A stretch of DNA of 64,000 nucleotides from Ruditapes philippinarum (Eukaryota), in NCBI RefSeq assembly GCF_026571515.1, contig NW_026857783.1, positions 114,878 to 178,877 on the forward strand. Direction: 5' to 3'. The first letter of the stretch is position 1; each line of letters starts with the position of its first letter. This document shows, piece by piece, positions 9,329 to 61,888 of the stretch. The notes beneath the pieces are model-generated. The model had not been told where the DNA came from and did no database searches. It saw only the letters and a program-made list of their open reading frames with translations. The position numbers were made by a program, and so were the translations under genes.

Positions 9329-9757
9329 CTATTCTGGTGAGCTTATTTCATTGTGATAATGACTTTCTATACCGAATCCTGCTATGAAAACATTTGAAAC
9401 AATAACAAACAAAACAAGAACGCTTCCAGTCCTATCCAGCCATGTTGCAATTCTTTCCTTTCGTTTCATTTGTGGATCGTCTTCACTGGGTTTCGTCTCT
9501 ATTTGTTTCGTCTCTATTTGTTTCTCTAATGTTTTTTCAACTGACCATATGATGAGCATACAGATTGTGAAGATTACTTGCAGAGTAATGGACATACAAA
9601 TGAATGTTAATATCAGGTAATAGTGCGGATTGTTGTCAGAGGCAATGAGGGCTTTTAGTTGAGACACGTTCGCCATCATCAGAGCCACGTCCATCAGTTG
9701 ATGTATGAAGTTGCGTTTACCGATATATGCATTAGGTGTTGTCACAGGTTCAATGCT
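9329..9757 (-). CDS. Ninjurin-like paralogue B, last exon (SIEPVTTPNAYIGKRNFIHQLMDVALMMANVSQLKALI...two TM helices...)
   Basis: Acceptor cttcag on the minus strand (plus 9758-9763). The core NFIHQLMDVALMMANVSQLK and the second TM helix VLVLFVIVSNVFIAGFG are shared with paralogue C and resemble NINJ1. Stop codon at 9329-9331. Confidence 0.8.
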   Translation of the reverse strand, partial: SIEPVTTPNAYIGKRNFIHQLMDVALMMANVSQLKALIASDNNPHYYLILTFICMSITLQVIFTICMLIIWSVEKTLEKQIETKQIETKPSEDDPQMKRKERIATWLDRTGSVLVLFVIVSNVFIAGFGIESHYHNEISSPE

Positions 9758-16765: not shown

Positions 16766-17233
16766 TCAGAGTTGAATTTTCGTTCCATTCATCAAAAGCA
16801 AGAATCGTTCGACAACCTTCGATTCTTTCGGAGATTCTGGATCTCCGTGTTCTTCTACCCCAAATCCAGTAATGAAAACATTAGAAACAATTATCAGAAG
16901 CACTAAAATATTTCCAAATTTGTCTAGTCTTTCGGAAAGAATTCGTCGGCTTTCATCCACTGGGTGATTCTCCTTTGGGGACTCCGCTAGGTGCTCTTGC
17001 AGCTTCTTTTCTATGGACCAAATAATCAACATGCATACTGTGAATACCACTTGCAGCACTATAGAACAACAAATGAACGCCAGGAGAATGAAGTAATATT
17101 TGTCCCCCTTGTCCATAGAGAGAAGAGATTTTAATTGAGACACATTGGCCATCAGGAGAGCCACGTCCATCAGTTGATGAATAAAGTTTCGTTTACCAAC
17201 ATAAATGTTGGGGGCACCGGTACTTTCCAAGTC
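16766..17233 (-). CDS. Ninjurin-like paralogue C, last exon (DLESTGAPNIYVGKRNFIHQLMDVALLMANVSQLKSLL...ILVLLIIVSNVFITGFGVEE...)
   Basis: Acceptor caatttcag on the minus strand (plus 17234-17242). This paralogue gives the best NINJ1 match: KRNFIHQLMDVALLMANVSQLKSL versus human KKSAAESMLDIALLMANASQLKAV, and LIIVSNVFITGFGV versus IIVVVNIFITAFGV. Stop codon at 16766-16768. Confidence 0.85.
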   Translation of the reverse strand, partial: DLESTGAPNIYVGKRNFIHQLMDVALLMANVSQLKSLLSMDKGDKYYFILLAFICCSIVLQVVFTVCMLIIWSIEKKLQEHLAESPKENHPVDESRRILSERLDKFGNILVLLIIVSNVFITGFGVEEHGDPESPKESKVVERFLLLMNGTKIQL

Positions 17234-17399
17234 CTGAAATTGAAAACATTGTTTTAAAATCGGAGTAAAGTATATAGAAAGAGAGAGTGTGCTCACAAAT
17301 TAATTACATCAAACGTAGAAAATCACTTTTCTGGTAAAAAAAAGAAAGATATTATTTCAAACCAATAAAAATCATCCAGTAAAACACTTTAACACCGTT

Positions 17400-22035: not shown

Positions 22036-23069
22036 TAACAAAATATGATGAAAAACCGTGGAATTACCCAAAAACTTGATTTTCCATGTTAACACATGCC
22101 CTAACACTGAATTTCTGTGAAAACTTGTTGTTTTTTTCACATTTTTTTAATTAACATTTGAGCTCAGTTTGAAAAGAATCCTTATTGGGGTATATGACTT
22201 ATAGAGTCGGCTTCCTGACATTCAATTTTGAAGAAAATCATTCGAATGGTATAGGAAATTGACTTGAAATCATTTATTCTTAAACTGTGAGTTTGAGCCA
22301 GCATAGGGATTGGTTTCCATCAGTGTACAATCGGTCAACTAAAATTATTGTATCACACAAGGGCTACATAGTACTATCTATTAGTGACTATTAATACTTA
22401 TTGTATGATGACAACGCACAAATATAAACACAAAGGAAGGCAAGATACTTCAAAATGCAAATATTTATGAGTGATTATAAATAATCTTTAATTGAGGGAA
22501 CAGATCATTAACATTCTTAATGATACAAAGTGTCCCACATATGGGGGCATGCTATTATATATTTAAGTCAATGCTACATGCCATATATCTAAGCTCTAGG
22601 CAATAATATTTATGAGTTTACTAAAACAGTTTATATAAACTTATTGTCCATCCTTGAGGAGGTAATTTTGACCCCCTTGGGAAAAAGAATTATTTAACTT
22701 TTGCAGAGAATTAAAAGATGGTGGTGCTACAAGCCAAATATCTATGCTATGACACTGATGTTTATGAGAATATTTTTTCAAGATATTTTTCAAGATATGT
22801 CACTTCATAAGTTAACTAGCCTATGAAGTCTTAGTGAAAATTCTGCTAGTTGCATATACTTCTATATGTAATTAAATATGGAAAAGAAATTATTTAACTT
22901 ATCTATAATAAATTAAAAGGTTATTGGGGTGGGGGACAACACCAGGAAAACACCAGGTCAGTAATTACTACTGATCTATTAATCAGAGCACCTAAGAATT
23001 TTATCAATTATCTTTCATTCAAACACATTTACTCTTAAGATTAACAAATCAAAAAATTTTTTTTTCTTA

Positions 23070-23623
23070 TCAAGAACAGCTCTTGTCTAATTGCCTTAAA
23101 TCAATAGGTGCCAGATTTTGTTTGTGTATATTACAAGAATGCTTTTTTATATTTCCTGCAACTGACGACGTGTACTCGCACATCGGACATTTAAAAGGCT
23201 TCTCTTTGGTATGCACACGTTCATGCTGTTTTAAAATCGTAACATTGAAGAAACCTTTGCCACATTCTTTGCAAACAAACTTTCTATTCTTATCGAAATG
23301 CCTGCGTTTGTGTGACCGTAATGCAAACTTAGTCTTCAAAACTTTTCCGCAGATGTCACAAACAGACTCCTCTTGTTCATGAACCTTAATTTTATGCTGG
23401 TGTGCTGCTTTTGTAGTCTTAAATAGTTTTCCACAAATTTCACACGGGTGTATATGAAGAGCTTTCAACTCCTCTTCATTTTTACCACATGACAATTCTT
23501 TATGACTTTTGAAGTTTTCGTATTTGGTCATATGTTTGCCACAGGTTTCGCACTGGTAACTGTTCAGACGCCAAATACTATCCATGTGCTGTTTCTCACG
23601 TTTGTGCTTATAAAGGTCTCGAT
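23070..23623 (-). CDS. C2H2 zinc-finger protein, last exon (about 5 complete fingers plus the C-terminal half of a split finger); stop at 23070
   Basis: Repeated C-x2-C-x12-H-x3-5-H units (CEICGKLFKTTKAAHQHKIKVH, CDICGKVLKTKFALRSHKRRH, CKECGKGFFNVTILKQHERVH ...). Acceptor ctacatgcag in phase 1. The leading YRDLYKHKREKQH completes the finger begun by CPICGEEFEG in the upstream exon. Confidence 0.8.
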
Positions 23624-23689
23624 CTGCATGTAGAAAACATAGAAAAGTTATTAAACAATAGAATAAGTACAATCTGTGATCACTTTCTT

Positions 23690-24364
23690 TAGAAATAACA
23701 ATGTATGTTCTTAATTCTACAAATGTTCTTTGCAGTCATTCACTACTCAACATAATGTAATAACCATTTATGTTCTTAATTCTAGAGATGTTCTTTGAAG
23801 TCATTCACTACTCAACATAATGTAATAACCATGAATGTTCTTAATTCTAGAGATGTTCTTAACAAACATTCTCTACTCAACATAATATAATAACCATTTA
23901 TGTTCTTAATTCTACAAATGTTCTTTGAAGTCATTCACTACTCAACATAATGTAATAACCATGAATGTTCTTAATTCTAGAGATGTTCTTTACAAACATT
24001 CTTTACTCAACATAATGTAATAACCATGAATGTTCTTAATTCTAGAGATGTTCTTAACAAACATTCTCTACTCAACATAATATAATAACCATTTATGTTC
24101 TTAATTCTACAAATGTTCTTTGAAGTCATTCACTACTCAACATAATGTAATAACCATGAATGTTCTTAATTCTAGAGATGTTCTTTACAAACATTCTTTA
24201 CTCAACATAATGTAATAACCATGAATGTTCTTAATTCTAGAGATGTTCTTAACAAACATTCTCTACTCAACATAATGTAATAACCATTTATGTTCTTAAT
24301 TCTAGAGATGTTCTTTACAGACATTCACTACTCAACATAATGTAATAACCATTTATGTTCTTAA
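23690..24364. repeat. Satellite with a 65-bp unit (about 10 copies); proximal block of an array split by an insertion
   Basis: The unit ttctacaaatgttctttgaagtcattcactactcaacataatgtaataaccatgaatgttcttaa is repeated head to tail. The block starts 70 bp upstream of the ZNF exon acceptor and lies in the ZNF intron. Confidence 0.9.
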
Positions 24365-26357
24365 GGTGACAACGGAGTCAATTATCACTGAAAATACCTA
24401 AAATGAGATTTTTTGCTTAGTATATTTATCAACCTTTTCTGAACACATTCGTGATTTAATTTTGGAAGCAGTTAGTCCAAAAAATGTGTTTTTAAACGTT
24501 TTAAAACGGTACCTGTACTATTTTTATCTGCTATCGCGTAACCTGTCAATTATCGATAACGCTCCGCCCCCTGTTGAGGCATCAATGAGGGAAATCGGTA
24601 GTTCCATATATGCGTGAATTACCGGTCCATACTGGTCCATACTACTCGTAATTCATGTATCGTACAAATACCGTACATCTTTTATGAATATCGTCTACCT
24701 TTTATTTAGCCTTTTTTATAAAATAAGAAATTGTCGGCCAATGTACGTAACATAATGTATGAAACATAAAATTAAATAATTAAGCATAGCGACAAATCGC
24801 ACGACCACGGGGTTGATTAAAAATATAGTTGCTAAAATATCCATAATGTGTGAAAATAATTTGTCTGTCCCGTTAATCTGATAGATATTACATTGAGTTT
24901 ATGGACTTTTGTACGGATTCAAGGGCTTGCTTTACATTCAACCTCGTTTTCTAACAATGTCAAGTAAAACAACAACAAAAGCAGACAACATTTTTTATGT
25001 GAACGCCTATATGACTTGTGGTAAGGTCTCCCTGACAAATTTCTAAACCATTTTAGGTTGTCTAAGGATGATTATTTCTCTATGAATCAATAAAAAAAGA
25101 TAATAAAATAAATTATCAGTGAATGCTTTGAATAAATTGTTCGCTAGTAAATCGAACACAGTACTAATAAACCTGGGAGAAAGTTTGGAATTTATTGTAT
25201 ATCCCAGTAGAAACTGGATCTCTATGCCGTGCATAGATGATTTCCATGATAATAGAAGTCAAGAAGGTCAGATCATAATGATCGAGTGATACCTTTTATT
25301 TCTATTAAAATATGTGAAGCATTTATATCAATTTGGAGGAAAAAATATATAAAATCCCGTTCTTATTTGTACATCTACCATGGACTTTAAAATACTGTCA
25401 GAAGCTCAGTTTTTTTGTTATTTTAATTTATATTTTAACGGAATTTCATACACGAGTACACAGATAGAGTGACACTGGTATAATATAATAATAATGCTGA
25501 TGATAATAATAATAAACTTTAAATGTGAAACAATTAAATACCCCGCTAGCGGTGCACAAATACGTCCCATTTCCCCCCACCGAGTGCCTCAAATTTTACC
25601 GAAAGTCACGTGACATGTGCAACCGATACCAGACTAACGGTAAATCACGTTAAGATGTGAAGAAATTTCTGTTATAAACTGATATTAATCAGCAACTTTT
25701 TAATTGGTCAGATGTCACTGGGTCATAAAATGTTGTTAGTGTATGTTACCGCAACTTGTGACCCTCTCTGGTGCGATATTTGTGTATTATGTAATTATTT
25801 AGCGTGAAACGTAGGGGTCCGAGAGAGAACAGCCAATTTATGACACTTCGTTTGATGCGGATCGGACTAACTTTGAATCGGCATAACTTTTTTAATAATC
25901 AAGCAATTAACATGCGGTTTAAAGCACATGAAGGGGAATTCATTTACGGAGGGAACCGTATCAGGGATTTTTGTTTGCTCAATCAGCGACTTAATTATCT
26001 TTAATTACGTAATATGTATGGTGAAAAAAGTCGCATAAAATGTTTGACGTTACGTAATATTTTTTTGAGAAAAGATAGACAAAATTTGAGACACGGTTCC
26101 CCAGATATTATAAGTATGTTTATTTTCCAAAAGTTTGATGACACAAAAATAAAAAATGACTTTGATATGACGATTTAAAATTTTAGGATTTTTATTAAAA
26201 ATCAATCATTTACAAAGACATTTTTTTCAAATATGTTATTTTTTATGATGATCAACGACATTTAATGCACAAAGATTAAATAAATAACAATTATTACTAG
26301 AATAAGTTGGTTTAAATGACATTTATGTGATTACCACGGAAAGTGTCTGTTGTCACC
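24365..26357. mobile_element. A 1993-bp TIR element inserted into the satellite; it is flanked by a TTAA target-site duplication and has the 9-bp TIR GGTGACAAC...GTTGTCACC
   Basis: Left junction ...atgttc TTAA|ggtgacaacggag. Right junction ctgttgtcacc|TTAA ttctacaaatg. The satellite unit continues in register across the insertion, with the TTAA of the unit gttcTTAAttcta duplicated. No intact transposase ORF is present, so the element is non-autonomous. Confidence 0.75.
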
Positions 26358-27325
26358 TTAATTCTACAAATGTTCTTTGAAGTCATTCAATACTCAACAT
26401 AATGTAATAACCATTTATGTTCTTAATTCTACAAATGTTCTTTGAAGTCATTCACTACTCAACATAATGTAATAACCATGAATGTTCTTAATTCTAGAGA
26501 TGTTCTTAACAAACATTCTCTACTCAACATAATATAATAACCATTTATGTTCTTAATTCTACAAATGTTCTTTGAAGTCATTCACTACTCAACATAATGT
26601 AATAACCATGAATGTTCTTAATTCTAGAGATGTTCTTTACAAACATTCTTTACTCAACATAATGTAATAACCATGAATGTTCTTAATTCTAGAGATGTTC
26701 TTAACAAACATTCTCTACTCAACATAATATAATAACCATTTATGTTCTTAATTCTACAAATGTTCTTTGAAGTCATTCACTACTCAACATAATGTAATAA
26801 CCATGAATGTTCTTAATTCTAGAGATGTTCTTTACAAACATTCTTTACTCAACATAATGTAATAACCATGAATGTTCTTAATTCTAGAGATGTTCTTAAC
26901 AAACATTCTCTACTCAACATAATGTAATAACCATTTATGTTCTTAATTCTAGAGATGTTCTTTACAGACATTCACTACTCAACATAATGTAATAACCATT
27001 TATGTTCTTAATTCTACAAATGTTCTTTGAAGTCATTCACTACTCAACATAATGTAATAACCATGAATGTTCTTAATTCTAGAGATGTTCTTTACAAACA
27101 TTCTTTACTCAACATAATGTAATAACCATGAATGTTCTTAATTCTAGAGATGTTCTTAACAAACATTCTCTACTCAACATAATATAATAACCATTTATGT
27201 TCTTAATTCTACAAATGTTCTTTGCAGTCATTCACTACTCAACATAATGTAATAACCATGAATGTTCTTTATTCTACAGATGTTCTTTACAGATATTCAC
27301 TACTCAACATATTGTATAACAATGT
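26358..27325. repeat. Satellite with a 65-bp unit (about 15 copies); distal block
   Basis: Same unit as 23690-24364. Confidence 0.9.
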
Positions 27326-27927
27326 TATAATATGTGATCTTTACTTTACACATGTTTGCTAATATACAGACTTTCTCTAGTCATTTATGGATGAAGGTCA
27401 AAGTTAGTCTGGTCTACTGAAAGGTTTTGTCCCAAGGGTTGTTGTGGCCAAGTATGAAGACAATTCAACAAGAGCATAAAAAGTTATAATCAAGGTACAA
27501 GTTTGCGGATGTCAACGCTGACATAACAATACCAGTTAATTGAGTTAATAATGAACAACATAATGATCTTATACAAATACAAATAATGATAGTAAAATAG
27601 CTAGATATTTGCTTCTGTGAGAACAGCCAGTGTTTTAATTGGTCTTTTTCTTGCATATTACATCTAAATCATATACGAGAACTAATATTTTCACACACCA
27701 TTTTTCTTCTAGTACAGGAGTTTATATATTCATTTATAACAGTGTAATAGCGTCCTCCTAGGTATGCAATTCATTCATAATGAACAACTTGCCTTGCACA
27801 GGGGACTGAAAATTGGGATTTTCTGTAACCATAGAACAATTCTGATTAATATGCAAGGAAAGTTATACTAGACATGGGGTGTCAGGCTACCACTTAATTT
27901 ACAGACTATTACAATACCAGTACTTAC

Positions 27928-28167
27928 ATCCTTCAAACTCTTCTCCACATATAGGGCACACAGGGTTCGGCATAATTTCTCTATGATTTGCAAACATATG
28001 CTGCCTTAATTTTCTTCTGTCTTGAAACAGGTAATCACATTCAGAACACTTCAGAAATCCCATTTTTAGAAGTTCTTCTGGACTATAATGGCGTTTAGCA
28101 AATCCCCGAGGTTTTGTTTTTGGAAGGGTATGTTTGACCTCATTCCTATGCACCCACAGGTTCTCCA
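27928..28167 (-). CDS. C2H2 zinc-finger protein, internal exon (..LENLWVHRNEVKHTLPKTKPRGFAKRHYSPEELLKMGFLKCSECDYLFQDRRKLRQHMFANHREIMPNPVCPICGEEFEG)
   Basis: Acceptor ttttgtcag in phase 1. Donor GGAT|gtaagtac in phase 1. It contains one complete finger (CSECDYLFQDRRKLRQHMFANH) and two half-fingers completed by the flanking exons. Confidence 0.7.
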
Positions 28168-29036
28168 CTGACAAAATAATATAGACATTCATTATACAAC
28201 ATACATTTTGATATAAAGTTTTTAAATTGAAACACATTAATTCTTAACCAAGAATCAATTTAGTTGTTTAAAAATACTAATTTCAGATTAATTGTAATTG
28301 TGTTTAGCAACTTATATTAATCATTTTTTGAGTCCCCTCCCTATTACTAATAATCATGATTATATAAGGAACAAAGATGTGACCGGAAAGGGCTCTAACC
28401 CTCGATCACGAGAAAGAGTGGTAAGACACTTATACCAATGTGCCTCTGCCTCTTGTAAGTCATTTAATTATTAGAACAGTATCATTGAATAAGTACAAAA
28501 CTTATCACAATGAATTTAAAAGAGCTTAATTGTAGTCTAAAAGTCTCAAAGCATAGTTTGTAAATCTTACTGTGATGACGACGAACTGGGTCACTTTAAA
28601 CAGAAAAATTTGAAAAAAATTAATGAAGAAATATTCTCTAAATTAAAAAGAAAATCAATATTTGGTGCTAACACAAGTTTAATTAAATACTGTTTACTTT
28701 ATATACATTGTAGTTTAAAGTCATTTTGCACAATAAAAATTATTATTCTGAAAAAATGGAAAAACGAAGCATGAGAATGATCTGTAACTTTGCACGTAAG
28801 TTATTGGTATGGATCTCCATCAAACGATATAAAACCTTGTAAAAAATATCCAGTCGTATCATATCAAAAAACCTTAGTGGTGTTCCTTTAAAAATAAAAT
28901 TTTGGTTAATAGAATCTTTTATACTTCTATTTCTGAAATAGGCAATGTCAAAGTAAAGTGCCACAACACTAATAAAATAAATTACAATAAAATAAATTAT
29001 AAGTTAACTACAAATAATAATAAAAACAATATTTAC

Positions 29037-29840
29037 GTGATGAAAATTTTTCCTGGCAATCTGGGCAAAAAGAACAGCTTAGCTGATTAGCATACATTTT
29101 ATTCTTTGTTTTTTCATTTTCTTCTTTGTCAGTTATTAGACTTTCATCCTCATTTTCATTTGTCAATTTATCCTCGCCTTCGGATATTTTACCTTTATTT
29201 TTTATTTTTGTCACCAAATCTGCTAAGTAAGCACTTTTTCGAATTCCTTTAATTGCAGAACTATATTTAGCATAACTTTGATTTGTCTTTCTGATTTTCA
29301 CAGGTTTAAGCATGTTATGCTCTACAAAGTCAGAGATATATCCACTAGCAGGTACCCCTTTTGTTGGGAGAGAGCTTACAGCAGTCATTGGTTGGTTAAG
29401 CCCCAGATTAATACCAGATGACAATGGAGTTAGTAAAGGTCTAACAGAAGTTCCTAAAGCATTTGATGTCAAATCACTGATACCAGGTGTGACAGATATA
29501 ATGGGTAACACAGTATTTGGAGTAGAAACTTTAAGTCCTCCAGCTTGCTCATTATTAGACTTCAAAATTTTTGTCTTTTTAAATATGTCTTCATCTATTG
29601 CAGAAATTTCATGTTTTGTTTCTTCATTATCATTAGCAGGAAGTATGGGTGTTTCTACGTCATACAGGGAAGGTTCATCAGCAGAATCTGTGTCTGTTCC
29701 ATAGTCTTCATAAACGACTTCTGACTTAATTTCCACAAAGTCTGGCATGTCTGTGTCGTTATCATTGGTTTCATGAATGTTTGTAAAAATGTTATCAAAA
29801 CCATTCTGCCTGACATCTACCACTGTCTGATCTGATACGA
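29037..29840 (-). CDS. C2H2 zinc-finger protein, large 5' exon: an acidic Ser/Thr/Asp-rich low-complexity region of about 268 aa ending in the N-terminal half of a C2H2 finger (CSFCPDCQEKFSS|)
   Basis: Candidate acceptor tatatgtttcag (plus 29841-29852) in phase 1. Donor TCAC|gtaaat in phase 1. Joined to the next exon it gives C-P-D-C-QEKFSSLENLWV-H-RNEVK-H, a perfect C-x2-C-x12-H-x5-H. The exon has no in-frame ATG, since the supplied ORF starts at a GTG, so further 5' exons are not identified. Confidence 0.6.
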
Positions 29841-31460: not shown

Positions 31461-33315
31461 CAGATATTATTATTCTTATTTGTAGACAAACACTGAAGTT
31501 TGTTTAATCAATAATAAACCGTATAATAATACTGTTATAACAAGTATACCATTTAGCCAACATGTCCAGTTCTTGTCAGTAAACAGTTTTCTAATAGAAT
31601 CTTCCTGTTCACTGTTAACTAACATTGTAATATGGTATTGGCCGACTTCACCCATTGCTGTTATCAAAACTACTTTCTCCTGAAATCAGTGAAATGAAAT
31701 ACATAATCATTCAATAAAAGATTAACAGACATTTCTTTATAATTATGCTCTATATCTCACAGGAACTCGGCACAGTGTTTGGAAAGTGTAAAAAGTATTT
31801 CTAGAAAAAAAAAAATATACTACATAATTATATAATATATAGACAGCATATATTTTACACTATCCCAACACTGTCCCGAGTCCCTGTGCTATATTATATA
31901 TAGTCTAGTAAAAGAGACAAAAATTTGAAATGTGAAATCAATCCCTTCAGTAACAAGTATGATAAGAGCAAAAAGTATATATTATAATATTTTTAAAGAA
32001 CATGTAAAATAGTTAGCTTATGTAAAATTGTAAAATAGTTAGCTCAAAGGGGAAATAACTCTTGAAATAAAGATGCTAGAGTTATGAACCATGTCATGCA
32101 TGTTGTGAGTATTGACAGAAAGAACAATTATCTTAGTCTAAAGACAAAAGGATATCATTTACATATTAATAACAAAGAACAGGGGGGGGGGGGGGGGCGG
32201 CTATAATTCTAGAAATATTGACACTAGAGTTATAAACCATGTCACAGAGTTGCATCTAGGCCGGGCGATTTGCACATTTTCAGTGTCTAATCTAGAAGGG
32301 GGGATGGGGGGATTCCCCCATATTTTTGAGAATTCCCCGCTATTTTTTCAGAGGCAGGGGGAAAATTTTACATAAAAAATCAACAAATTCTCATATTTGG
32401 ATAAAAATCCCCCCTGTTTTTCAAATCCTAGAATAGACACTGCATTTTATGATATTTTTTGCAGATTGCGCATTTTAATTAAGTCAATATGCACCAAGTC
32501 ATGCATCTGACGATCTTTTCAACTTGATTCAATTAATCTTCATTGTATCTTGAAAGCTTCTGCCATGTTTGTTTTCATTTGTTTTAATGACTAAAATACG
32601 TACTCAATCACGTGTAGCAGACAACCGGGTCATCCCGCATGTGTAATGATGGTTTGATCGCACACTTTACAACTTAAAGGGACTCCACTGAGGTGTGAAG
32701 GCCTAAAAACATAACATTTGAATTTCTTACATAAATGAGCTATCATGGCACTTAAACAGAAATATATGCAAATATAGTTAAGAAATATACTTTGAAATAA
32801 ATTGAAAATTACATTTTTATACTTTTCTTAGTCCGATTTGAGTGAAAAGCGTTTAAACACTTTTCACTTTGGGTCATTTTTTACAATTTGAATAATTATT
32901 CTGGAAAAACAAAGTGTGCGAATAATCTGAAATTTTACACAAAGATTAGTGGTCTTAACCTACACCAAATGGTACATTTATCTGGAAAAAATATTTTCAT
33001 TCTAGTCATGTCAAAAAACCTCAGTGTAGTCCCTTTAATACAAGTATTCATCAATATATTTTATTTTTCTATTTCCGTTGTTGAGCGGACGCTAGCTGTC
33101 AGAAATGCCTAAACGTAAAATAAATTAATTCTTTTGAATGAATGGGGGACAATACCCCATAATTTTGAAATTCTAGTAGATGCAACACTGATGTCACATT
33201 AGATCTAACCGAAATTATGATATGGGACATGATGAGTTAGCAATTCTTTTGGAGAGACTGAGATTGGGCTGGTGATGTATGTCTTATGGAGAGATTTTGA
33301 CTCTATATGCTTTAA

Positions 33316-37996: not shown

Positions 37997-39649
37997 TCAT
38001 TCCACATTGTTGATGTACTTTTTCAAAGCTATCGGTATTGACAATTCAACCACAGCCGTGGATTTCCATTCACATGCTTGCAAAATACTTAAGCGACAAA
38101 GAACTTTTAAGTTCCAAACACTAGAAGATCGTTTTTGCATCTCGTCTTTGCATATTTTAAAAAGCTTCCTTTGTATATCATTGGTCGGTTTCCCGCCAAA
38201 TTCGATCTTACACGCGCTACTGACAGACGTCAATGTCATATTACCAAGGAGTGTATTCACTATTTCATTAACATACTCCAGTTGTGCAGCTTCGTCTGAT
38301 TTTGTTATCTTTTCAAACTTTTCAGAGTGCATTAAAATTTCGTCACAAAATGTGTTTAACGGAAACTTTCCGGACAAATTTTCATTGGGATCAGAACCGT
38401 TCTGGATCAACAGTCTAAAAGTAGTGATACTGCGTTCATCCAATCCAAGTACTATAGAAACTTTCAGAAATGCATGTAAAGCGTTCCCTATGAAACCATT
38501 TGGTCCGTCACCAACGCTGCCCTTCACTGAAAGATCGGAACCGTGGCGTAGTAACGTCTCCGTGCATTTGGTGATAAAACGTCTAATATTTGTGACGTCA
38601 TCTTCAAAATGTCTTACTAATGTTAAAACATTGTCATACAAGCAGTGGAGCGCGGACGAGTACGCTAATCGTCCAAATGCTGTTTGGATGTGCAATGCTT
38701 CGTGTTCCTTCTCAAATTTGACCTCATCAAAGTTCGGATCCACTCCTGCGTTCAAGAGAACAACCATGCACGCTGCTATATATGGATACGACTTTCCGAA
38801 ATCCGACGCGGGTGTATGGCTTAGTAAGCTATACAATGGATAAGTACGAAATGGAATATCAGACACTGGATTTTGTTTATACTTCAACAAGACGGAGGTA
38901 ACTGTCAAAAGAGATTCGTACCATTCCTTTTTAAATGATAGACTGTACGAGTATAGTACATGGTAAAGGTTCATACCACTGAAAAGTGAAGTAAGTGAAG
39001 GATTGCATCTTAAAAGAACATCTAGGCACTCTGCATTTGCTAATTTCAAGGCAGCGCCTACTGCAGACTTAAGGTCGTCCGACGTTGTCCTTTCTTTAAG
39101 CAATAAGCGTAGAGCAGACGGCGAGTTACTGGCACATGCTGCGGATAAGTGATTTTCTGAACCAAACTCCAGTTTGGTTTTAACTGACGACACATCCAAA
39201 ATAGATCTTACACACGAAGTGTGCCCACTTAGAGCGGCTACATCTAGCGGTGTCACCATACTTGTCCCGCCAGGGGAATGTAGTGGCGTCTCCGTCGGGG
39301 GATTCACCCACTTGAATTTACTTTTCTTTGTAGAATAATCACGTGGTCTCTCTTGTAAAATCATACTTACAATTGTTCTACTTCCAAAGTTTGCTGCCAG
39401 ATGTATATAAGAATGAAATTTTGGTTCGTGTGGCGGTTTAAAATGACCGAGGGCAAATATGATTCCGACGGCCTCAATGTTTTCTGACATAATGGCATGA
39501 TGTAAAATATCGTAGCCATCTTTATCTGTCCAGGAAAGCAACTGATCTCTGTCGCACTTTTCGAAACATCCTCTTAGTCTAGAGACATCTTCTGTAGTAT
39601 TTATTTTCAAATAAAGCGTAGATTTCAAGTCGTTTATTTTCGTCGACAT
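37997..39649 (-). CDS. Ankyrin-repeat and SOCS-box (ASB-like) protein in a single uninterrupted ORF of about 550 aa; an alternative upstream ATG lies at 39679
   Basis: The uninterrupted ORF is 560 codons. It has several ANK-like repeats (DGYDILHHAIMSENIEAVGIIFALG; TPLDVAALSGHTSCVRSIL; LKSAVGAALKLANAECLDVLLRCNP; YPYIAACMVVLLNAGVDPN; GNALHAFLKVSIVLG..LLIQNGSDPN). The C-terminus matches the SOCS-box BC and Cul boxes (SVWNLKVLCRLSI...LSIPIALKKYI). No introns are needed. Confidence 0.8.
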   Translation of the reverse strand: MSTKINDLKSTLYLKINTTEDVSRLRGCFEKCDRDQLLSWTDKDGYDILHHAIMSENIEAVGIIFALGHFKPPHEPKFHSYIHLAANFGSRTIVSMILQERPRDYSTKKSKFKWVNPPTETPLHSPGGTSMVTPLDVAALSGHTSCVRSILDVSSVKTKLEFGSENHLSAACASNSPSALRLLLKERTTSDDLKSAVGAALKLANAECLDVLLRCNPSLTSLFSGMNLYHVLYSYSLSFKKEWYESLLTVTSVLLKYKQNPVSDIPFRTYPLYSLLSHTPASDFGKSYPYIAACMVVLLNAGVDPNFDEVKFEKEHEALHIQTAFGRLAYSSALHCLYDNVLTLVRHFEDDVTNIRRFITKCTETLLRHGSDLSVKGSVGDGPNGFIGNALHAFLKVSIVLGLDERSITTFRLLIQNGSDPNENLSGKFPLNTFCDEILMHSEKFEKITKSDEAAQLEYVNEIVNTLLGNMTLTSVSSACKIEFGGKPTNDIQRKLFKICKDEMQKRSSSVWNLKVLCRLSILQACEWKSTAVVELSIPIALKKYINNVE

Positions 39650-40877
39650 GATTGTGCGCACTACAATTATTTGAAGCACATTGAACAGTAAAGAACTATC
39701 CCTCGATATCTTTCAAGCGTCATTGACTACGCAATAAAACGATATATTCCAGATGTATGCAATTGCCTTTTAGCCTTAGCCAATCTCTTTAAAGTTTGCT
39801 TCAACAGTTCTGTTGATTTTTTCATTCATTGCTTGATGTGAATGATCAACACGAGTAATTCCAACTCTATTTAGAACGAAAACTATGAAAATTCCATAAT
39901 CTACACTAGATCGATAAGCGTTTATTAAACATACAACTAATCAAGCGTCTACGAATCTAAACAAGTTGACCAGAAGGATAGTTCTTTACATGTATTATTA
40001 CGCAAGATAGAAATAAAATAACATAAATATTTAAGCCTTACCATGCACAGTATGTACCGTAATTCATGAATATGTAGGGGGAGATGGATTCTGTATTATT
40101 ATCATATTAAAAACATCTGCAGTGATGCTTTAAATCGACTTGACCTACATTTGCTTTTAGTTATACACAGATTTTAACTGCTTTTATGTTTATTTTATGA
40201 TTTTATATTTTCATTATAAATGGGTGTAACTGTCAGCCTACATGTATATATCCCGAGGCACCGTCACAACCGTGTAGTATTATATCCTTATTTTAAATTA
40301 TTAATTTTGAATAAGTGTATAGATCTATATATATCTGATGCAAAAAAAAATATGTGAATTTTAAAAAAAAGTTTGCTTCCAAAATGCTTGTATGATATAA
40401 ATATGGTAATTTATTGCCTTAAAGCGAATGGCGCATGCACAAAATTGCTAAACGGATAAAACTCTACTTAAAATAGCAAAATAATATTTTATTTATATAA
40501 ATACATTATTCATGTGTATTAAATAACAGAGACATTCTATGTTACAACTTTTTCGGGAATCAACCATATAATAATGGAACCAATATAATTTTACCGTTGA
40601 TTAATTTTTTAAAAATATTTCATAACTTTAACGCCCTTATAATATATTATATATACTAAGGGAATTGATCTTTCAGGTGAACGCCCTAGCTTACACTAAA
40701 TATTTTACGTAAATACTTGAATAGTGATCAATAAAACATTCTCACTAAAAATGAATATGTTTATACTTAATTAGTAACCGTTATTTGGAACACACTTGTG
40801 ATAAGTATATACATTGTACATTAATACTTGAACAGTGATCATTCAAGATCTTTAGAGAATAATTTAATTTGACTGTT

Positions 40878-41905: not shown

Positions 41906-42376
41906 TCAGATTGACAAAGCGAAATCAGGAACAACATCGCAAGACGGTCGTTTCTTTTCCAAGTCAGTTTCTTTCTTTCCAAATATAGAAACGAGTTTTT
42001 TCGAGACAGTCATCAGAGAGCTCCTCCGCCGTCGTAGTATCGTTGATCTTTGTTGTTGAGTTATTTTTGCATCTCTTAATAATGCCTGATAAGCAATGCT
42101 GATTGGCATAAACACATCAGCTGCCGAAACCTCGTAAAACTGGCAGCCATATTCTAGCGCGAGCTCGTGACCTACATCTACACCAACTTCTCGTCTGTGT
42201 TCGAGATCTCGTTTGTTAGCAAGAAGCAGCATTGGAACGATGAATGGGGATTTCATCTTGTGAAGAGAGTGAATAATGTGTCGAGCTACTTCAAATGTCT
42301 CTTTTACACAAATATCATAAATCACTATAAATCCATCTGCCCATTGTACATGAGACTCGGACGGATTATTTTTTCC
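41906..42376 (-). CDS. RERG: RERG-like Ras-family small GTPase, last exon (GKNNPSESHVQWADGFIVIYDI...LLLANKRDL...YEVSA...), with no CAAX box
   Basis: Acceptor cactgtttcag in phase 0. It carries the G4 motif NKRD and the G5 motif EVSA. ESHVQWADGFIVIYDICVKETFEVA resembles vertebrate RERG ..[22 protein letters not shown]. Stop codon at 41906. The first 37 residues of the supplied 191-aa ORF are intronic (TCAA)n translation. Confidence 0.8.
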   Translation of the reverse strand, partial: GKNNPSESHVQWADGFIVIYDICVKETFEVARHIIHSLHKMKSPFIVPMLLLANKRDLEHRREVGVDVGHELALEYGCQFYEVSAADVFMPISIAYQALLRDAKITQQQRSTILRRRRSSLMTVSKKLVSIFGKKETDLEKKRPSCDVVPDFALSI

Positions 42377-42394
42377 CTGAAACAGTGAATAAGC

Positions 42395-42600
42395 ATGATT
42401 GATTGATTGATTGATTGATTGGTTGGTTGGTTGATTGCTTGCTTGCTTGATTGATTGATTGATTGATTGACTGACTGACACACTGACACACTGATTGGTT
42501 TACTGATTGGTTGATTGATTGATTGAGTGAGTGAGTGAGTGGTTGACTTATTGATTAATTGATTGATTGATTGATTAAGTGAGTGGGTGAGTGAGTGAGT
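42395..42600. repeat. (CAATCAAT)n/(CACT)n compound microsatellite in RERG-like intron 3
   Basis: The region reads gattgattgattggttggttgattgcttgcttg...gagtgagtgagtg. Confidence 0.9.
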
Positions 42601-48660: not shown

Positions 48661-51660
48661 TTCTTCTTCTTCTTCCAGTATAAGAGCCGGGATCCAAAAG
48701 GAACGTAATGAGGCTCTGCGAAACTATGTACATGGTGAGATGGAACACTCTTCCTCTCAGCGATAAAAGTTGTAAAAACTGATAAAAATTTATTTACAGA
48801 GACGTTGTGAAGTGAATTTAGATGGAGGCCGGCAGGCGCGCGCGGAAAGCATCCAACGTTTCCGCGGCGGTGACTGTTGATGCCAGGCCATTCCAGTCAA
48901 CAATTGTCCTGGGGAAGAAGGTATTTGTATACATCCTGCCAGTGGTGCGTTCTTGGTAGAAACGTATACGTGTTCTACTGTCACTGGTGTTCTTCTTGGA
49001 TTGGTTACTCAGTGGTAGGTACTTGTCCTTGGGGATGTCTACTAGGTCATGTTGAATGCGATAGAGCATGCCTAACCTTGCTTCCTTCCTTCTCTGTTGG
49101 AGGGTGTTCCAATCCAGGCTCCTCAGCATTCCTGTCATACATCCGGGTGTTCTGGATTTATAGTCATTTTTGACAAAACTGGCTGCACTTTTCTGGATCT
49201 GCTCAAGTGAATCTATGTGTGTCTGAAGATGAGGATCCCAAACCGTTGCTGCATATTCAAGACCTGGGCGTACAAAAGTTGCTGCTTTCAGTTGTGGTGT
49301 ACAATCCTTCATGTTTCTCCTCACAAATCCCAGTGTTCTGTTTCCTTTGGCAGCTACATTCTGTATGTGCTTGTCCCATGAGAGGTTGTTGGAGACACTT
49401 ACACCAAGGTATTTGCTGTGGTCCACTGATTGCAGGACTTGGCCATGAAGTATATATTGTTCCAGTGCTTCAAGATCCTGCTGCAGCCTTGCCTTGCCTT
49501 GTCATTTGTACTCTTGATGACCCTGTACATGAGGCTGTCGTCCGCAAAGAGTCGGATGTCAGATGATGTGCAGTCAGGCATGTTATTTATGAAGGCCAGG
49601 AATAAAAGTGGACCTAGTACGGTTCCCTGGGGAACGCCAGATATAACATCATCTTGGTCAGACTTGGTGCCTTCAAGGACTACCTGTTGCTTGCGGTTAC
49701 TCAGGAAGGTTTTGATCCACTGGCTTAAGGGACCTCTCACGCCATAGAAATCTAGCTTGTAGAGGAACTTTGTCGAACGCCTTCTCGAAGTCGAGTAGAA
49801 TGGCGTCTACTTTGTTACCCGCTGAGAGATACTTCGCGATGGTGTCAACTGTTGTTAAAATTTGAGTTTCGCATGAGCGACGTTTCCTGAAACCATGCTG
49901 GTTGTCTCTCAGTATATGGTTGGTGTCAAAGTGTGACATTATATTACTGTGGACAATGTGTTCCAGGATCTTGCAGGTGATCGATGTAAGTGAGACGGGC
50001 CTATAGTTGGCCGGGATGTGTGTATCTCCCTTTTTGTAGATGGGTACTACATTTGCATCTCTCCAGTCCTGAGGTACTTCAGAAGAGTCTAGGGAAAACT
50101 GGAAAAGGCGGGTAAGTATTGGTGCCAGTTCAGCAGCAGCTAAATGGAGGAACCGGGTCGGAATCTCATCAGGGCCTGCAGCTTTAAATTTATGGCAGTT
50201 AAGATTTTGGAGTAATTTCCGTACTCCTGGTTCCCTAACTGTAATAGATGGCATGCTGGGATGGCTACTTGGTCCCTTGTCAGGTAAGTTCTCTGTGGGT
50301 TCTCGGGTGAAGACAGAGCTGAACTGCTGGTTCAGTATACTGGCCTTGCTCTTGCTGTCACTCCGAATGAAACCAGCAATATTCTTCAGGGGCGCTACAC
50401 CAACTATTTCCTGACCCTTGCTCTTGATGTAGGAATAGAACTTCTTTTTGTTGGCTGGACTACTGTCACTGATGATGTCTTGCATATACTGCCGGCTTGC
50501 TCGTCTTGTGTGCCACTGGACTTCTTTTTGCAGTCGCTTGTAACGATCTCTGTCTCGTTTGGAGTTTGATTTCCTAGCTTTCTTAAAGGCTTTTTGTTTC
50601 CGTCGAATGCTTCTTTTGATGGTGGAATTCATCCATGGATTTGTATATTTAGAACAAGTGAGTTTAGATGGTACTCTCTTGGTTATAATTTCTGTGATGT
50701 TTGTTTTAAAATCATGCCACATCGATTCAATGTCTGTGTATGGGGTGTTCTGGAATTCGGTTGCTAGAGTACGGGTGTCTTCTTTGATGGCATTAAGGTC
50801 CGCCTTCTTCCATAGTAGTATTTTCCGTCTTGCTGGGCGTGGATGGTATGTTTGGATCGAAGTGTCGAGGAGCACAATGTCATGATCGCTGTTCCCTATC
50901 GAGGGCATAGGTTTACATCTCATCTTGAAGCTGGAGTGGGTGGTCAGGATCAGATCTAGTATCTTGTCTTTCCTGGTTGGAAAATCCACTTATTGTTCTA
51001 GGTTGGAGTCAGCTATCATATCTAGGAAGTGTTTGCTGGTGCTCTGTGGGTACTGGGATCCAGATATATCAAGAGTTTTCCAGTCTATGTCTGGTAAATT
51101 GAAGTCGCCCCCAATAATAAATATGCTGTTCTTCGATTTGGACTTCAAACTGCTAATCTCTTCTGTTGATTTTGAGAGGTATTCAGAATCAGTCCTGTTT
51201 GGTGGTCTGTAGTAGGTTGCTTTTGTGATGTTTTTGGATCCTGACTTGATGGTGCCACTAACCAGTTCTGTGTTACTGCTCTTGTAGATGTCGTGTAGCA
51301 GGAGATGTTGTTTTGCCGCTATAAGGACTCCACCATGGGGGTTTTCAGGTCTGTCTCTCCGCTGTATGTCATAGCCAAGGTCACTTGGCAGTATTTCGCT
51401 AGAGGCAACTTGACTGTCCAGCCAGGTTTCTGTGCCTAAAATAACATCTGGGTCGCAGTCTAGTATGATTGACTCAAGGAGTTTCCCTTTCTTACGTAGG
51501 CTCTGGAAGTTTATATTAAGAAGGCGTAGCATGTTTTTCTTCGCGGTGGATTTGGCTGAGGTTTGCTGAGGCTTAGGTGAGGAGGTAATTATGTTTGCAC
51601 CAGAGAGGTTGAAGGTAGAGTTGCTGTGTTCAGTACTCACGCTAGATCTGGACTGCATTG
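48661..51660 (-). mobile_element. Non-LTR retrotransposon (APE endonuclease plus reverse transcriptase; CR1/L2/RTE-like), decayed, about 3 kb
   Basis: Collinear minus-strand ORFs. The 222-aa ORF at 50990-51658 has APE-type endonuclease motifs (ILGTETWLD, GGDFN). The 430-aa ORF at 49697-50989 and the 113-aa ORF at 49399-49740 hold the RT, with FRKRRSCETQI...LDFEKAFDKV and VPQGTVLGPLLF...FADDSLMY. The 202-aa ORF at 48818-49426 is the C-terminal domain. Adjacent ORFs are separated by one stop and two frameshifts. A (GAA)5 microsatellite tail lies at the element's 3' end (plus 48661-48675). Confidence 0.85.
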
Positions 51661-55949: not shown

Positions 55950-58235
55950 CTAAATAGTAAATACCCAAATATACCCAATTACACCCAAATATACCCAAAT
56001 ATAGCAATATTCATTTTTGTTTGTATAAAATACAGATTATAATTTGAAAATGAATCAATATTAATAAAAATAATATTACTTAGTCAGCTATAACTTTCAT
56101 TCATTCCGTTAAAATGGGCAGTTTAAATGTTGTAAGAAAATAAACTTGTGACATTTGCTTATCTAGGTTCATTACTGAATATACTTGCAAATTAAAATAA
56201 AGATATGATAATATTTGTTGTCTACATTTAATTTTTAGCTCACCTGAGCATGCTCAGGGTGAGCTTTTAGGATCGATGATTGTCCGTCGTCCGTCCGTCC
56301 GTCGTCCGTTCACATTTTGTTGTTAACACTCTAGCTGTCGCATTTTTGCCTCAATCATCATCAAACTTGGTCAGGATGCTTATCTAGTTGATAGCTCAGA
56401 TGAGTTCGAACATGGGTCATCTCGGATGAAAAACTAGGTCACAAGAGCTAAAAATAGAAAAACCTTGTTAACACTCTAGAGGTCTGGTCACATTTTTGCC
56501 TCAATCATCATCAAACTTGGTCAGGATGTTTGTCTAGGTGATAGCTCGGATGAGTTCGAACATGGGTCATCTCGGATGAAAAAGTAGGTCACCGGAACTA
56601 CAAATAGAAAAACCTTGTTAACACTCTAGCGGTCACATTTTTGTCTCAATCATCATCAAACTTGGTCAGGATGCTTGTCTAGGTTACAGATAGCTCGGAT
56701 GAGTTCGAACATGGGTCATCTCAGATGAAAAACTAGGTCACCGGAGCTAAAAATAGAAAAACCTTGTTAACACTCCAGCGGTCACATTTTTGCCTCAATC
56801 ATCATCAAACTTGGTCAGGATGCTTGTCTAGGTTACAGATAGCTCGGATGAGTTCGAACATGGGTCATCTCGGATGAAAAAGTAGGTCACTGGAGCTAAA
56901 AATAGAAAAACCTTGTTAACACTCTAGCAGTCACATTTTTGCATCAATCATCATCAAACTTGGTCAAGATGCTTGTCTAGGTGATAGCTTGGATGAAGTT
57001 GAACATGAGTAATCCTGGATGAAAACCTAGGTCACCGGAGCTAAAAATATAAAAACCTTGTTAACACTCCAGCAGTCACATTTTTGCCTCAATCATCATC
57101 AAACTTGGTCAGGATGCTTATCTAGTTGATAGCTCGGATGAGTTCGAACATGGGTCATCTCGGATGAAAAACTAGGTCACAAGAGCTAAAAATAGAAAAA
57201 CCTTGTTAACACTCTAGAGTAGGTCACAATTTTGCCTCAATCATCATCAAACTTGGTAAGGATGTTTGTCTAGGTGATAGCTTGGATGAGTTGGAACATG
57301 GGTCATCTCGGATGAAAAACTAGGTCACAGGAGCTAAAAATAGAAAACTCTTGTTAACACTCTAGTGGCTCTTGTTTTGATCCAAATATCCTGTAAATTG
57401 GTCTGAAAGTTTGTTTTGATGATTTCTAAGTCAAGTTCGAACATGGGTCATCTTGGATGAAAAACTAGGTCACACCGCCCAAATATGGAAAAACCTTGTT
57501 AACATTCTAGTGGTCACATTTTCGACTCAATTATCATCAAACTTGGTCAGGATGCTTGTCTAGGTAATTGCTCGGATGAGTTCGAAATCGCATGTGAAAC
57601 TAGGTCACTGGAGCTAAAAATAGAAAAATCTTGTTAACACTCTAGTTGCTACTGTTTTGATCCAAATATCCTGGAAATTGGTCTGAAAGTTTGTTTTGAT
57701 GATTTCTAGGTCAAGTTTGAATATGGGTCACCTGGGTAAAAAACTAGGTCACACTGCTCAAATATGGTTAATCCTTGTTAACACTGTAGTGGTCACATTT
57801 TTCACTCATCTGTCATGAGACTTGGTCAGAATGCTTGTCTAGGTAATTGTTTGGATGAGTTTGATGGGTCAGGTGAGCGATCTAGGGCCATCATGGCCCT
57901 CTTGTTTAGAGTATTATTAAAATTTTGTTGAAATTTCATACAAGTGTCCATCACATTATTTTTTTTTTGAAAATTTAATATAGCTTTAATGAAGTGTACT
58001 GTACTGTATTTGGGTATATTTTGGTTCAAAACACAATGATAGGAAAATGTATATTTGGGTATGTTTGTCTTTGTTTGATCAATCTCAGTGAAAGTGTATA
58101 TTGTAATTCATAATTAAAACAGCACTTTTTTTTGTATAAAACATTCATTTTTGGTATATTTGAGCAATATTTGGGTATATTTGGGCAATATTGGCAATAT
58201 TTAGGTGTATTTGGGTATATTTGGGTATTTCATGC
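55950..58235. mobile_element. Foldback-type element of about 2.3 kb: TIRs of about 80 bp flank a 150-bp tandem array of about 11 copies; it lies in PARP4-like intron 1
   Basis: Left TIR aaatacccaaatatacccaattacacccaaatatacccaaatatagcaatattcatttttg. Right TIR caaaaatgaatgtt..gagcaatatttgggtatatttgggcaatatt..ggtgtatttgggtatatttgggtatttc. The internal array at 56300-57890 repeats the unit ttgttaacactctagcggtcacatttttgcctcaatcatcatcaaacttggtcaggatgcttgtctagg..gatagctcggatgagttcgaacatgggtcatctcggatgaaaaactaggtcaccggagctaaaaatagaaaaacc. A perfect 12-bp-stem hairpin gctcacctgagcatgctcagggtgagc at 56238-56265 precedes the array. Confidence 0.8.
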
Positions 58236-59350: not shown

Positions 59351-59524
59351 GTAACTTTTATCTTAAGCAAGTTATACTATTAAACTTTTGACAGAATAAA
59401 AATTTTGTGCATCAGTTGTTTTTTTTTGACATGCTATCATGCTATTATATTCTTGATTGTTGAGAATTTTCTTCCTACTGAAAAAATGTCATACTTTAAA
59501 ACTTTGGAGTTTATGCTTGAGCTC

Positions 59525-61586: not shown

Positions 61587-61888
61587 CAAGAGAAAACTGA
61601 CACAAATAAGTACAATGGGCTTGTAGCGACAAGTTATTGGCAACAAGTTATTTAAAAAAAAATGCTATTTGTAGCTCAGTTTTAACATCTTGATATTGAA
61701 AAGCTGTAAACTTTAAATTGACGGTTTCAGTTTCAAAGTAGGACAAAACCATTTAGTAAGTTAAGGGCCTAGAGATAAATGTCTTTTGGAATCACAGTAA
61801 TCTGTTTATATAATCAGTAGCTCTGGTTTCATTAAAAAAATGAATATTTATCTTATTATAACAACCATTGTTTAAAACTTTCTTTCAG

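Follow-up and report, generated by a model that had tools for sequence, protein, structure and literature searches.

The stretch of DNA that we have analysed (the window, 64,000 nucleotides from the Manila clam, Ruditapes philippinarum) carries on its minus strand a four-exon zinc-finger gene that is intact and already annotated. The coding part of exon 1 (31655-31550; 106 coding nt) ends in the phase-1 donor G/gtatac, the slash marking the splice site, and intron 1 (31549-29841; 1,709 nt, GT-AG) is consequently in phase 1. Exon 2 (29840-29037; 804 nt; acceptor ...tatgtttcag/, donor /gtaaat) and exon 3 (28167-27928; 240 nt; acceptor ...ttttgtcag/, donor /gtaagt) are both symmetric (1-1) and are separated by intron 2 (29036-28168; 869 nt, GT-AG, phase 1), which has a G+C content of 26%. 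Intron 3 (27927-23624; 4,304 nt, GT-AG, phase 1) houses a satellite and a transposon, and is followed by the coding part of exon 4 (23623-23070; acceptor ...catgcag/), whose 554 nt include the TGA stop at 23072-23070. The poly(A)-signal-like hexamers nearest to this stop lie 577-918 nt downstream, at 22492, 22278 and 22151. The coding sequence specifies 567 amino acids that are identical over their entire length (100% identity, 567/567 residues) to RefSeq protein XP_060597093.1 ("zinc finger protein 184-like", Ruditapes philippinarum), and the gene model is thus already public.

An earlier, sequence-only reading of this region had recognized exons 2 to 4, and its exon coordinates, with their GT-AG borders, prove to be exact. 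Its claim that the three exons can be joined in only one open way is borne out by the single frame of the join, in which the terminal TGA is the only stop, as compared to 29 and 69 stops in the other two frames; the product corresponds residue for residue, with no mismatch, to positions 37-567 of XP_060597093.1. At the G+C content of the window (33%) the probability that a random codon is a stop is 0.074, and a 268-codon open stretch would be expected by chance at about 1e-9 and the entire 567-codon coding sequence at about 1e-19. Each of the two junctions, with the split codons C/TG (Leu) and T/AT (Tyr), rebuilds a C2H2 finger of the pattern C-x2-C-x12-H-x5-H, as had been proposed: CPDCQEKFSS-L-ENLWVHRNEVKH for finger 1 and CPICGEEFEG-Y-RDLYKHKREKQH for finger 3. 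The start exon, which the earlier reading had expected further 5', can now be supplied, and the assertion that all introns are in phase 1 extends to intron 1, which that reading had not seen; its splice reasoning from sequence alone was, in short, accurate. The ATG of exon 1 (31655-31653) has A at -3 and G at +4, is preceded 33 nt upstream by an in-frame TGA, and opens a segment that encodes MGEVGQYHITMLVNSEQEDSIRKLFTDKNWTCWLN and supplies the first base of Val36. Upstream of the ATG there is a good acceptor, atttcatttcactgatttcag, with its end at 31680, so that this exon probably starts at 31679 and a further non-coding 5' exon is predicted upstream of it.

The protein consists of three parts: an N-terminal module of about 55 aa, a linker and eight zinc fingers. 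The consensus of the module is MGEVxQYHITMLVxxEQEDAIRxLFKDKNWPCWLKV...GFTDIF, and the residues that are invariant in 10 family members (M1, G2, T10, M11, L12, Q17, I21, R22, F25, W30, C32, V42 and F54) are all present in the window protein. The linker is acidic at residues 56-130 (net charge -16), where it contains a conserved psi-K-x-E motif, IKSE; it is rich in S, T, P and G at residues 131-215, and lysine-rich at residues 216-292 (net charge +4). Acidic and S/T-rich segments are therefore present in the stretch of about 270 aa that had been described as acidic, S/T-rich and of low complexity, but the stretch is not uniform, since its first 20 or so residues belong to the conserved module and its end is lysine-rich. 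Exon 2 contributes the end of the module, the whole linker with IKSE (K74) and half of finger 1, as far as CPDCQEKFSS; exon 3 completes this finger and adds a 27-aa linker, the entire finger 2 and half of finger 3, as far as CPICGEEFEG; and exon 4 completes finger 3 and goes on to fingers 4-8.

On the joined protein the Pfam model PF00096 (zf-C2H2), the check that had been recommended for it, gives 72.1 bits (cut-off 25.2; E = 2.5e-20) over five stretches, with zf-C2H2_4 at 70.2 bits (cut-off 27) and zf-H2C2_2 at 52.4 (cut-off 40). The regular expression C-x2-4-C-x12-H-x3-5-H identifies exactly eight fingers, where at least eight had been claimed, starting at residues 294, 344, 374, 408, 444, 472, 501 and 529; seven are C2H2 and the fourth is C2HC. 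All 32 zinc ligands are intact in the window protein, and the finger ligands are invariant across 10 aligned family members. Of the seven linkers, the one that joins fingers 7 and 8 (TKEKPFK) is alone in fitting the 7-residue TGEKP-like linker of Krueppel-type proteins; the remaining six have lengths of 6, 8, 8, 11, 14 and 27 residues and unrelated sequences, and several fingers have H-x4-H or H-x5-H spacing. The finger region as a whole is strongly basic (net charge +20).

The gene belongs to a family found in Venerida, with members in Mercenaria mercenaria (XP_053397814.1 / XP_053397813.1) and Mactra antiquata (ACF0H5_020765 / ACF0H5_020766) and further paralogues in R. philippinarum and Mercenaria, all of which have in common with it the N-terminal module, the (E)IKSE motif, and finger types that follow each other in the same order and at the same spacing. 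The subfamily of the window gene (P0001-P0004) is distinguished from the other members (P0005-P0012) by the lack of a finger that the latter carry before the first split finger (finger 0), and the window protein ends directly after finger 8, whereas all other family members but P0002 and P0003 extend into long C-terminal tails. XP_060564974.1, a second copy or allele from R. philippinarum, lies on another contig and is 97% identical; it differs at 15 of 567 residues, 10 of them in the linker and none a zinc ligand. Conservation of the introns was compared in one homologue, that of Mactra antiquata (P0006), which maps to its genome as coding exons of 106, 576, 240 and 890 nt with three introns, all in phase 1 and splitting the same residues as in the window gene. 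The introns within H-x5-H fingers fall after the sixth residue past the second Cys in both species (FSS/L and FEG/Y in the window gene, FKT/Q and FET/R in Mactra). Fragments from other clam assemblies agree with this structure: both ends of the ORF fragment P0123 coincide with the splice sites of exon 3, and P0125-P0127 and P0129 run through the exon 1 donor site. Two independent Logan contigs (1.8-1.9 kb) carry the coding sequence of the homologue P0003 uninterrupted, and P0004, P0007 and P0012 are on contigs that barely exceed their coding sequences, which indicates that these are spliced mRNAs in which both split fingers are continuous. Exact look-ups of genomic context for P0001, the Mercenaria orthologue P0002 and the R. 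philippinarum paralogue P0010 returned none on record.

Intron 3 is rich in repeats, as the earlier reading had noticed in describing a 4.3-kb intron with a 1.6-kb satellite hit by a transposon. The satellite, 1,639 bp in total, is built of a 65-bp unit within a 195-bp higher-order repeat and is arranged in two blocks, of which the one that is 3' along the gene (23694-24364) has 10.3 copies at 96% match and the 5' one (26357-27324) has 14.9 copies at 94% match; all 24 copies detected in the window are within this intron. Between the blocks is an insertion of 1,993 bp (24365-26357), with a TTAA target-site duplication on either side (24361-24364 and 26358-26361), and position 26357 is both its last base and the first base of the 5' block. 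Read from outside to inside, its ends are TTAA+GGTGACAAC(G/A)GA, with GGTGACAAC(G/A)GA as terminal inverted repeats; the left end is TTAAGGTGACAACGGA at 24361-24376 (plus strand) and the right end TTAAGGTGACAACAGA at 26361-26346 (minus strand). The 195-bp register is regained upon removal of 1,997 bp, i.e., the element and one TTAA. The longest ORF of the element is 66 aa, and none of its seven longest ORFs has a Pfam match, which marks this copy as non-autonomous. The insertion is thus a non-autonomous cut-and-paste DNA transposon that targets TTAA. The piggyBac elements have the same target, but their ends begin CCC/CCYT, as compared to GGTGACAAC here. Intron 3 thus first gained the 65/195-bp satellite, within which the transposon then inserted; the coding sequence is untouched by either. 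The literature on R. philippinarum satellites and on bivalve C2H2 expansions yielded nothing specific to this satellite or to this family.

Taken jointly, an intact gene, a regulatory function, an origin of part of the gene by duplication and an intron 3 that acquired a satellite and then a transposon form a reading that we consider very probable. With respect to function, the finger content and the basic finger region suggest that the protein most likely acts in the nucleus, as a regulator that binds nucleic acid in a sequence-specific manner. Target binding would fall to the fingers and the recruitment of partners to the N-terminal module, by analogy with KRAB, ZAD and BTB domains elsewhere. 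The non-canonical linkers and the H-x4-H and H-x5-H spacings imply that some fingers may bind protein or RNA rather than DNA, and it could be argued that the gene model is right and that the protein is no DNA-binding transcription factor at all, but resembles some multi-finger adaptors in using non-canonical fingers to bind protein or RNA. Six of the seven linkers are non-canonical (6-27 aa), finger 4 is C2HC, fingers 1 and 3 are H-x5-H, and there is a weak Pfam match to zf-C2H2_jaz, a dsRNA-binding finger, at 21.4 bits (below the 22.6 cut-off). Fingers 6-8, however, are near the classical pattern, with short linkers, and show the strongest conservation within the family (KEKPFKCP); with the net charge of +20, this leads us to regard the adaptor-like alternative as unlikely.

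The two split fingers appear to have a common history. In all 12 family members the H-x5-H spacing is confined to fingers 1 and 3, which are reciprocal best matches, with a score of 27.2 that is the highest of 36 between-class pairs (next-best 11.1 and 16.1). In nearly all members each of the two is preceded by an H-x4-H finger whose start lies exactly 30 residues before its own, and in Mactra tblastn matches the tail of exon 2 to that of exon 3. Because the split residue and the phase are the same in both, an intragenic duplication that carried the intron with it best explains the pair: an old tandem duplication of a finger-containing segment with a phase-1 intron would have given rise to the symmetric 240-nt exon 3. 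Two observations go against such a duplication. The likeness between fingers 0 and 2 that a two-finger duplication predicts is weak (a score of 14.4, barely over 13.8, with finger 8 as the best match of finger 0), and finger 0 is entirely absent from the subfamily of the window gene. If fingers 1 and 3 had instead acquired their introns independently, e.g., at similar proto-splice sites, the weak similarity of fingers 0 and 2 would be accommodated, as would the fact that no family member displays the pre-duplication state, but both introns would have had to arrive at exactly the same residue (number seven past the second Cys) and in exactly the same phase, within fingers that are each other's closest relatives, the sole H-x5-H fingers, and in the same 30-residue register to the preceding finger. 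Independent gain therefore strikes us as improbable. The gene, as explained by duplication, illustrates how an intragenic event that spans an intron can yield a symmetric phase 1-1 exon and two identically split fingers.

That the window copy is a paralogue of recent duplication that is unexpressed or decaying, with a RefSeq model from homology only, is very improbable: a second, 97% identical copy lies on another contig, no exact transcript contig for the window protein is on record and intron 3 is loaded with repeats, but the 567-codon frame is fully open (chance about 1e-19), every splice site and all 32 zinc ligands are intact, the differences from the second copy cluster in the linker and spare the ligands, and the two copies may be haplotigs of a highly heterozygous genome.

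The N-terminal module is the part of the protein that sets this family apart. A profile of 81 N-terminal positions matched 19 proteins among 1.84 billion representative proteins, of which 17 are members of the clam family or their exon fragments; the other two, both rejected as spurious, are bacterial repeat proteins, namely a Cna_B/VWA repeat protein (P0132) and one with a peptidoglycan-binding domain (P0138). Also set aside was P0128, in which exon-1-like sequence shares an ORF with the remnant of a DDE_1 transposase and which looks like gene-caller read-through on genomic DNA rather than a genuine fusion. When four N-terminal sequences were compared with Pfam at E values of up to 10, only noise far below the cut-offs was returned (LacY_symp, ATHILA, VtrC). 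The AlphaFold model of the module is of moderate confidence (mean pLDDT 62; 70-87 across residues 11-50), and a Foldseek comparison of this model with the PDB gave nothing better than E = 6. The KRAB model (PF01352) found no match on residues 37-567 to E = 1, nor on the N-terminal 96 residues to E = 10. The orphan module could be a clam-specific effector domain. Joining exon 2 directly to exon 4, with exon 3 skipped, produces an in-frame and intact hybrid finger, CPDCQEKFSS-H-RDLYKHKREKQH, and such skipping, if it occurs, would alter binding specificity. We put forward as a tentative suggestion, on the doubtful side, that the module may be an undescribed effector domain confined to venerid and mactrid clams and that the skipping of exon 3 may be regulated. 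If this were true, the module would define a lineage-specific zinc-finger family in the manner of KRAB in tetrapods and ZAD in insects.

Apart from this small N-terminal domain, so far known only in clams, the gene is an ordinary one, and outside annotation its significance is slight. Its exon/intron structure is not unusual among conserved multi-exon zinc-finger genes. In TFIIIA, WT1 and CTCF, too, the fingers are distributed over several exons at intron positions that are conserved between species; the three belong to other families without detectable orthology to the clam gene, which differs from them in that its two intra-finger introns look like copies of each other. The RefSeq name is misleading, as it reflects finger similarity and not orthology: human ZNF184 belongs to the KRAB zinc-finger proteins and has a long array of fingers joined by TGEKP linkers, whereas the window protein has no KRAB domain, and its best non-bivalve matches reach only about 30% identity over the fingers. 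In broad outline the clam family is built like the KRAB-ZNF, ZAD-ZNF, BTB-ZNF and SCAN-ZNF families, each with a small N-terminal module, a variable linker and a C-terminal array of fingers, and each with a restricted taxonomic range and several paralogues per genome. The clam module matches neither KRAB, ZAD, BTB, SCAN nor any other Pfam family and is without the four cysteines of ZAD, and the finger array of the clam family is fixed in number and order, whereas the arrays of KRAB-ZNF proteins vary rapidly.

Joining the three exons proposed by the sequence-only reading, on the minus strand read between 22500 and 31000, gives 1,598 nt in which one frame is open up to its sole stop, the terminal one, and the other two frames contain 29 and 69 stops. 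The proposed coordinates proved exact: exon 2 (29840-29037, 804 nt) has the acceptor ...tatgtttcag and the donor gtaaat, exon 3 (28167-27928, 240 nt) has ...ttttgtcag and gtaagt, and the coding part of exon 4 (23623-23070, 554 nt, with TGA at its end) follows ...catgcag. The G+C content of the window is 33% and a random codon is therefore a stop with probability 0.074; at this composition an exon of 268 codons would stay open by chance with a probability of ~1e-9. Both junctions rebuild zinc fingers, as had been claimed, through the split codons C/TG (Leu), which restores CPDCQEKFSSLENLWVHRNEVKH, and T/AT (Tyr), which restores CPICGEEFEGYRDLYKHKREKQH. The ATG exon that remained to be sought further 5' was located at 31655-31550, on the same strand, where the ATG at 31655 has A at -3 and G at +4 and is preceded, 33 nt upstream, by a TGA in the same frame, and where the exon ends in ...TGGCTAAATG before the donor gtatac. 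Since this exon contributes 106 coding nt, intron 1 is also in phase 1, which extends to this intron the claim that all introns share this phase. A good splice acceptor ending at 31680, upstream of the ATG exon, suggests a putative additional non-coding 5' exon further upstream.

The conceptual translation of the four-exon CDS (1,704 nt) is identical to XP_060597093.1, so that the gene model was in the public domain already. A search of 5.8 billion proteins with the three-exon product had returned this 567-aa entry, "zinc finger protein 184-like [Ruditapes philippinarum]", at 100% identity and 100% query coverage; it is annotated on a 243-kb contig, and its 36 additional N-terminal residues match an ORF at 31476-31667. 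The RefSeq name mirrors finger similarity only, and the protein is neither a KRAB-ZNF nor an orthologue of ZNF184. A second 567-aa copy (XP_060564974.1, on a 69-kb contig) is present in the R. philippinarum RefSeq set and differs at 15 residues, most of them in the linker; the two copies may be haplotigs or the products of a very recent duplication. The true orthologue in Mercenaria is XP_053397814.1.

Every sequence test places the protein in the C2H2 family. The joined protein matches zf-C2H2 in a Pfam scan (E = 2.5e-20; 72 bits, cut-off 25), and a regular expression counts eight fingers, where at least eight had been predicted. Only fingers 6 and 7 have the classical H-x3-H spacing; fingers 1 and 3, the split pair, are H-x5-H, fingers 2, 5 and 8 are H-x4-H, and finger 4 is C2HC. 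Among the linkers only the last, TKEKPFK, is TGEKP-like, and the net charge of the finger region is +20. When ten family members (from Ruditapes, Mercenaria, Mactra and transcriptomes) are aligned, the finger ligands are all invariant. An (E)IKSE motif at K74, followed by acidic residues, is conserved; it fits the psi-K-x-E consensus and is a putative SUMOylation site. The ~270 residues before the fingers had been described as acidic, S/T-rich and of low complexity; it is instead made up of four parts, namely the end of an N-terminal module, an acidic stretch (net -16), an S/T/P/G-rich stretch and a K-rich stretch. With such small corrections, the earlier interpretation is supported.

Homologues provide support for the same exon structure. 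The Mactra antiquata homologue P0006, retrieved with its genomic locus and mapped exactly, has coding exons of 106, 576, 240 and 890 nt with GT-AG borders throughout and every intron in phase 1, split at CWMK/A, CPCGFKT/Q and STEFET/R, residues that correspond to those split in the window gene. In other clam assemblies, ORFs called in prokaryote style lose their similarity precisely where these donors lie: ...CW(L/M)(N/K)G... is the reading of P0125-P0127 and P0129, P0130, P0131 and P0135 read ...FKT-SK..., and P0123 covers exon 3 alone. P0003, a 43% identical homologue, has an uninterrupted reading frame, with short UTRs, on each of two independent Logan contigs (1,881 nt from SRR18242221 and 1,820 nt from SRR18242213), and the contigs of the homologues P0004, P0007 and P0012 barely exceed the CDS in length; these contigs are spliced transcripts of homologues in which both fingers are continuous.

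H-x5-H spacing is confined to the two split fingers in all 12 family members. Where another finger precedes a split one, it has, in nearly all members, H-x4-H spacing and a start exactly 30 residues before that of the split finger. When fingers were scored between classes across the family at 15 variable core positions, fingers 1 and 3 were reciprocal best matches with a score of 27.2, the highest of 36 between-class pairs (next best, 11.1 and 16.1). In Mactra, the tails of exons 2 and 3 also match each other by tblastn. The simplest account of the split pair is a tandem duplication that included an intron. The duplicated segment would have started inside one exon, crossed a phase-1 intron and run into the next exon, and the outcome would have been an additional, symmetric 1-1 exon made up of half-finger, linker, finger and half-finger, together with two introns in identical positions. 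Exon 3 is flanked by two phase-1 introns at equivalent positions in related fingers. The similarity between finger 2 and finger 0, an extra finger preceding finger 1 in some homologues, is weak (14.4), and the subfamily of the studied gene has lost finger 0, so it is uncertain how far the duplicated unit reached. As a corollary of the duplication, skipping of exon 3 would be in frame, with a predicted intact hybrid finger CPDCQEKFSSHRDLYKHKREKQH.

The N-terminal module is strongly conserved, with M1, G2, T10, M11, L12, Q17, I21, R22, F25, W30, C32, V42 and F54 invariant in the ten-member alignment. It has no Pfam match, and an 81-position profile scored against 1.84 billion representative proteins gave 19 matches, 17 of which are members of this gene's family or exon fragments of them; the other two, bacterial repeat proteins, were judged spurious. 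An AlphaFold model from the ten-sequence alignment is a small strand-helix-helix unit (pLDDT block means of 70-87 over residues 11-50, 62 overall), and comparison of this model with the PDB gave nothing below E = 6. Because the module lacks Pfam and PDB counterparts and its profile matches, apart from the two spurious ones, are confined to the family, we regard it as an orphan of a single lineage. It may recruit partners, as KRAB, ZAD and BTB do in their own families. In another clam assembly, the ORF P0128 combines what is left of a DDE_1 (pogo/Tigger-type) transposase with a sequence resembling exon 1, HHITMLVSSEQEDSIRLLFRDKKWPCILK, probably a transposon that inserted directly upstream of a paralogue's first coding exon and was read through by a prokaryote-style gene caller.

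The ~1.6-kb satellite reported in intron 3 measures 1,639 bp by Tandem Repeats Finder, in two blocks (23694-24364, 96% match; 26357-27324, 94% match) with a 65-bp unit and a 195-bp higher-order period, and all 24 of its copies in the window lie inside this intron. The transposon said to have entered it is the 1,993-bp insert at 24365-26357, both ends of which read, from outside to inside, TTAA-GGTGACAAC(G/A)GA; deletion of 1,997 bp restores the 195-bp register. The insert holds no ORF longer than 66 aa and no Pfam match; it is a cut-and-paste element that targets TTAA and is non-autonomous.

Elsewhere in the window, three paralogous ninjurin-like ORFs or exons (Ninjurin domain PF04923; 2679-3095 on the plus strand, 9329-9745 and 16766-17296 on the minus strand; E 4e-14 to 1e-20) form a local cluster on both strands. 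The next three features are on the minus strand. A single uninterrupted 560-aa ORF with ankyrin repeats at 37997-39679 (Ank_2, E = 1.7e-11) also matches the SOCS box weakly at its C-terminus (17.9 bits, below the cut-off of 23.5), and resembles an ASB-like gene or retrogene. The Ras-family ORF at 41906-42481 (PF00071, E = 3.7e-14, C-terminal two-thirds of the domain) probably represents a single exon of a gene for a small GTPase; its called 5' end extends into a (TGAT)n microsatellite at 42396-42576. A non-LTR retrotransposon at 48818-51658, with endonuclease (Exo_endo_phos, 50990-51658), reverse-transcriptase (RVT_1, 49697-50989) and additional ORFs (49399-49740, 48818-49426), is spread over several frames and therefore probably decayed. 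A 24-bp minisatellite of ~86 copies (59511-61588) is a source of long spurious ORFs, and a separate tandem array with periods of 145 and 438 bp occupies 56320-57861.

The studied gene is already annotated, and what is mildly new, with nothing beyond it, is the orphan N-terminal module and the proposed intron-carrying duplication. Introns inside fingers are well known elsewhere, and the structure of the gene is therefore unsurprising: TFIIIA, WT1 and CTCF are likewise conserved multi-exon finger genes.
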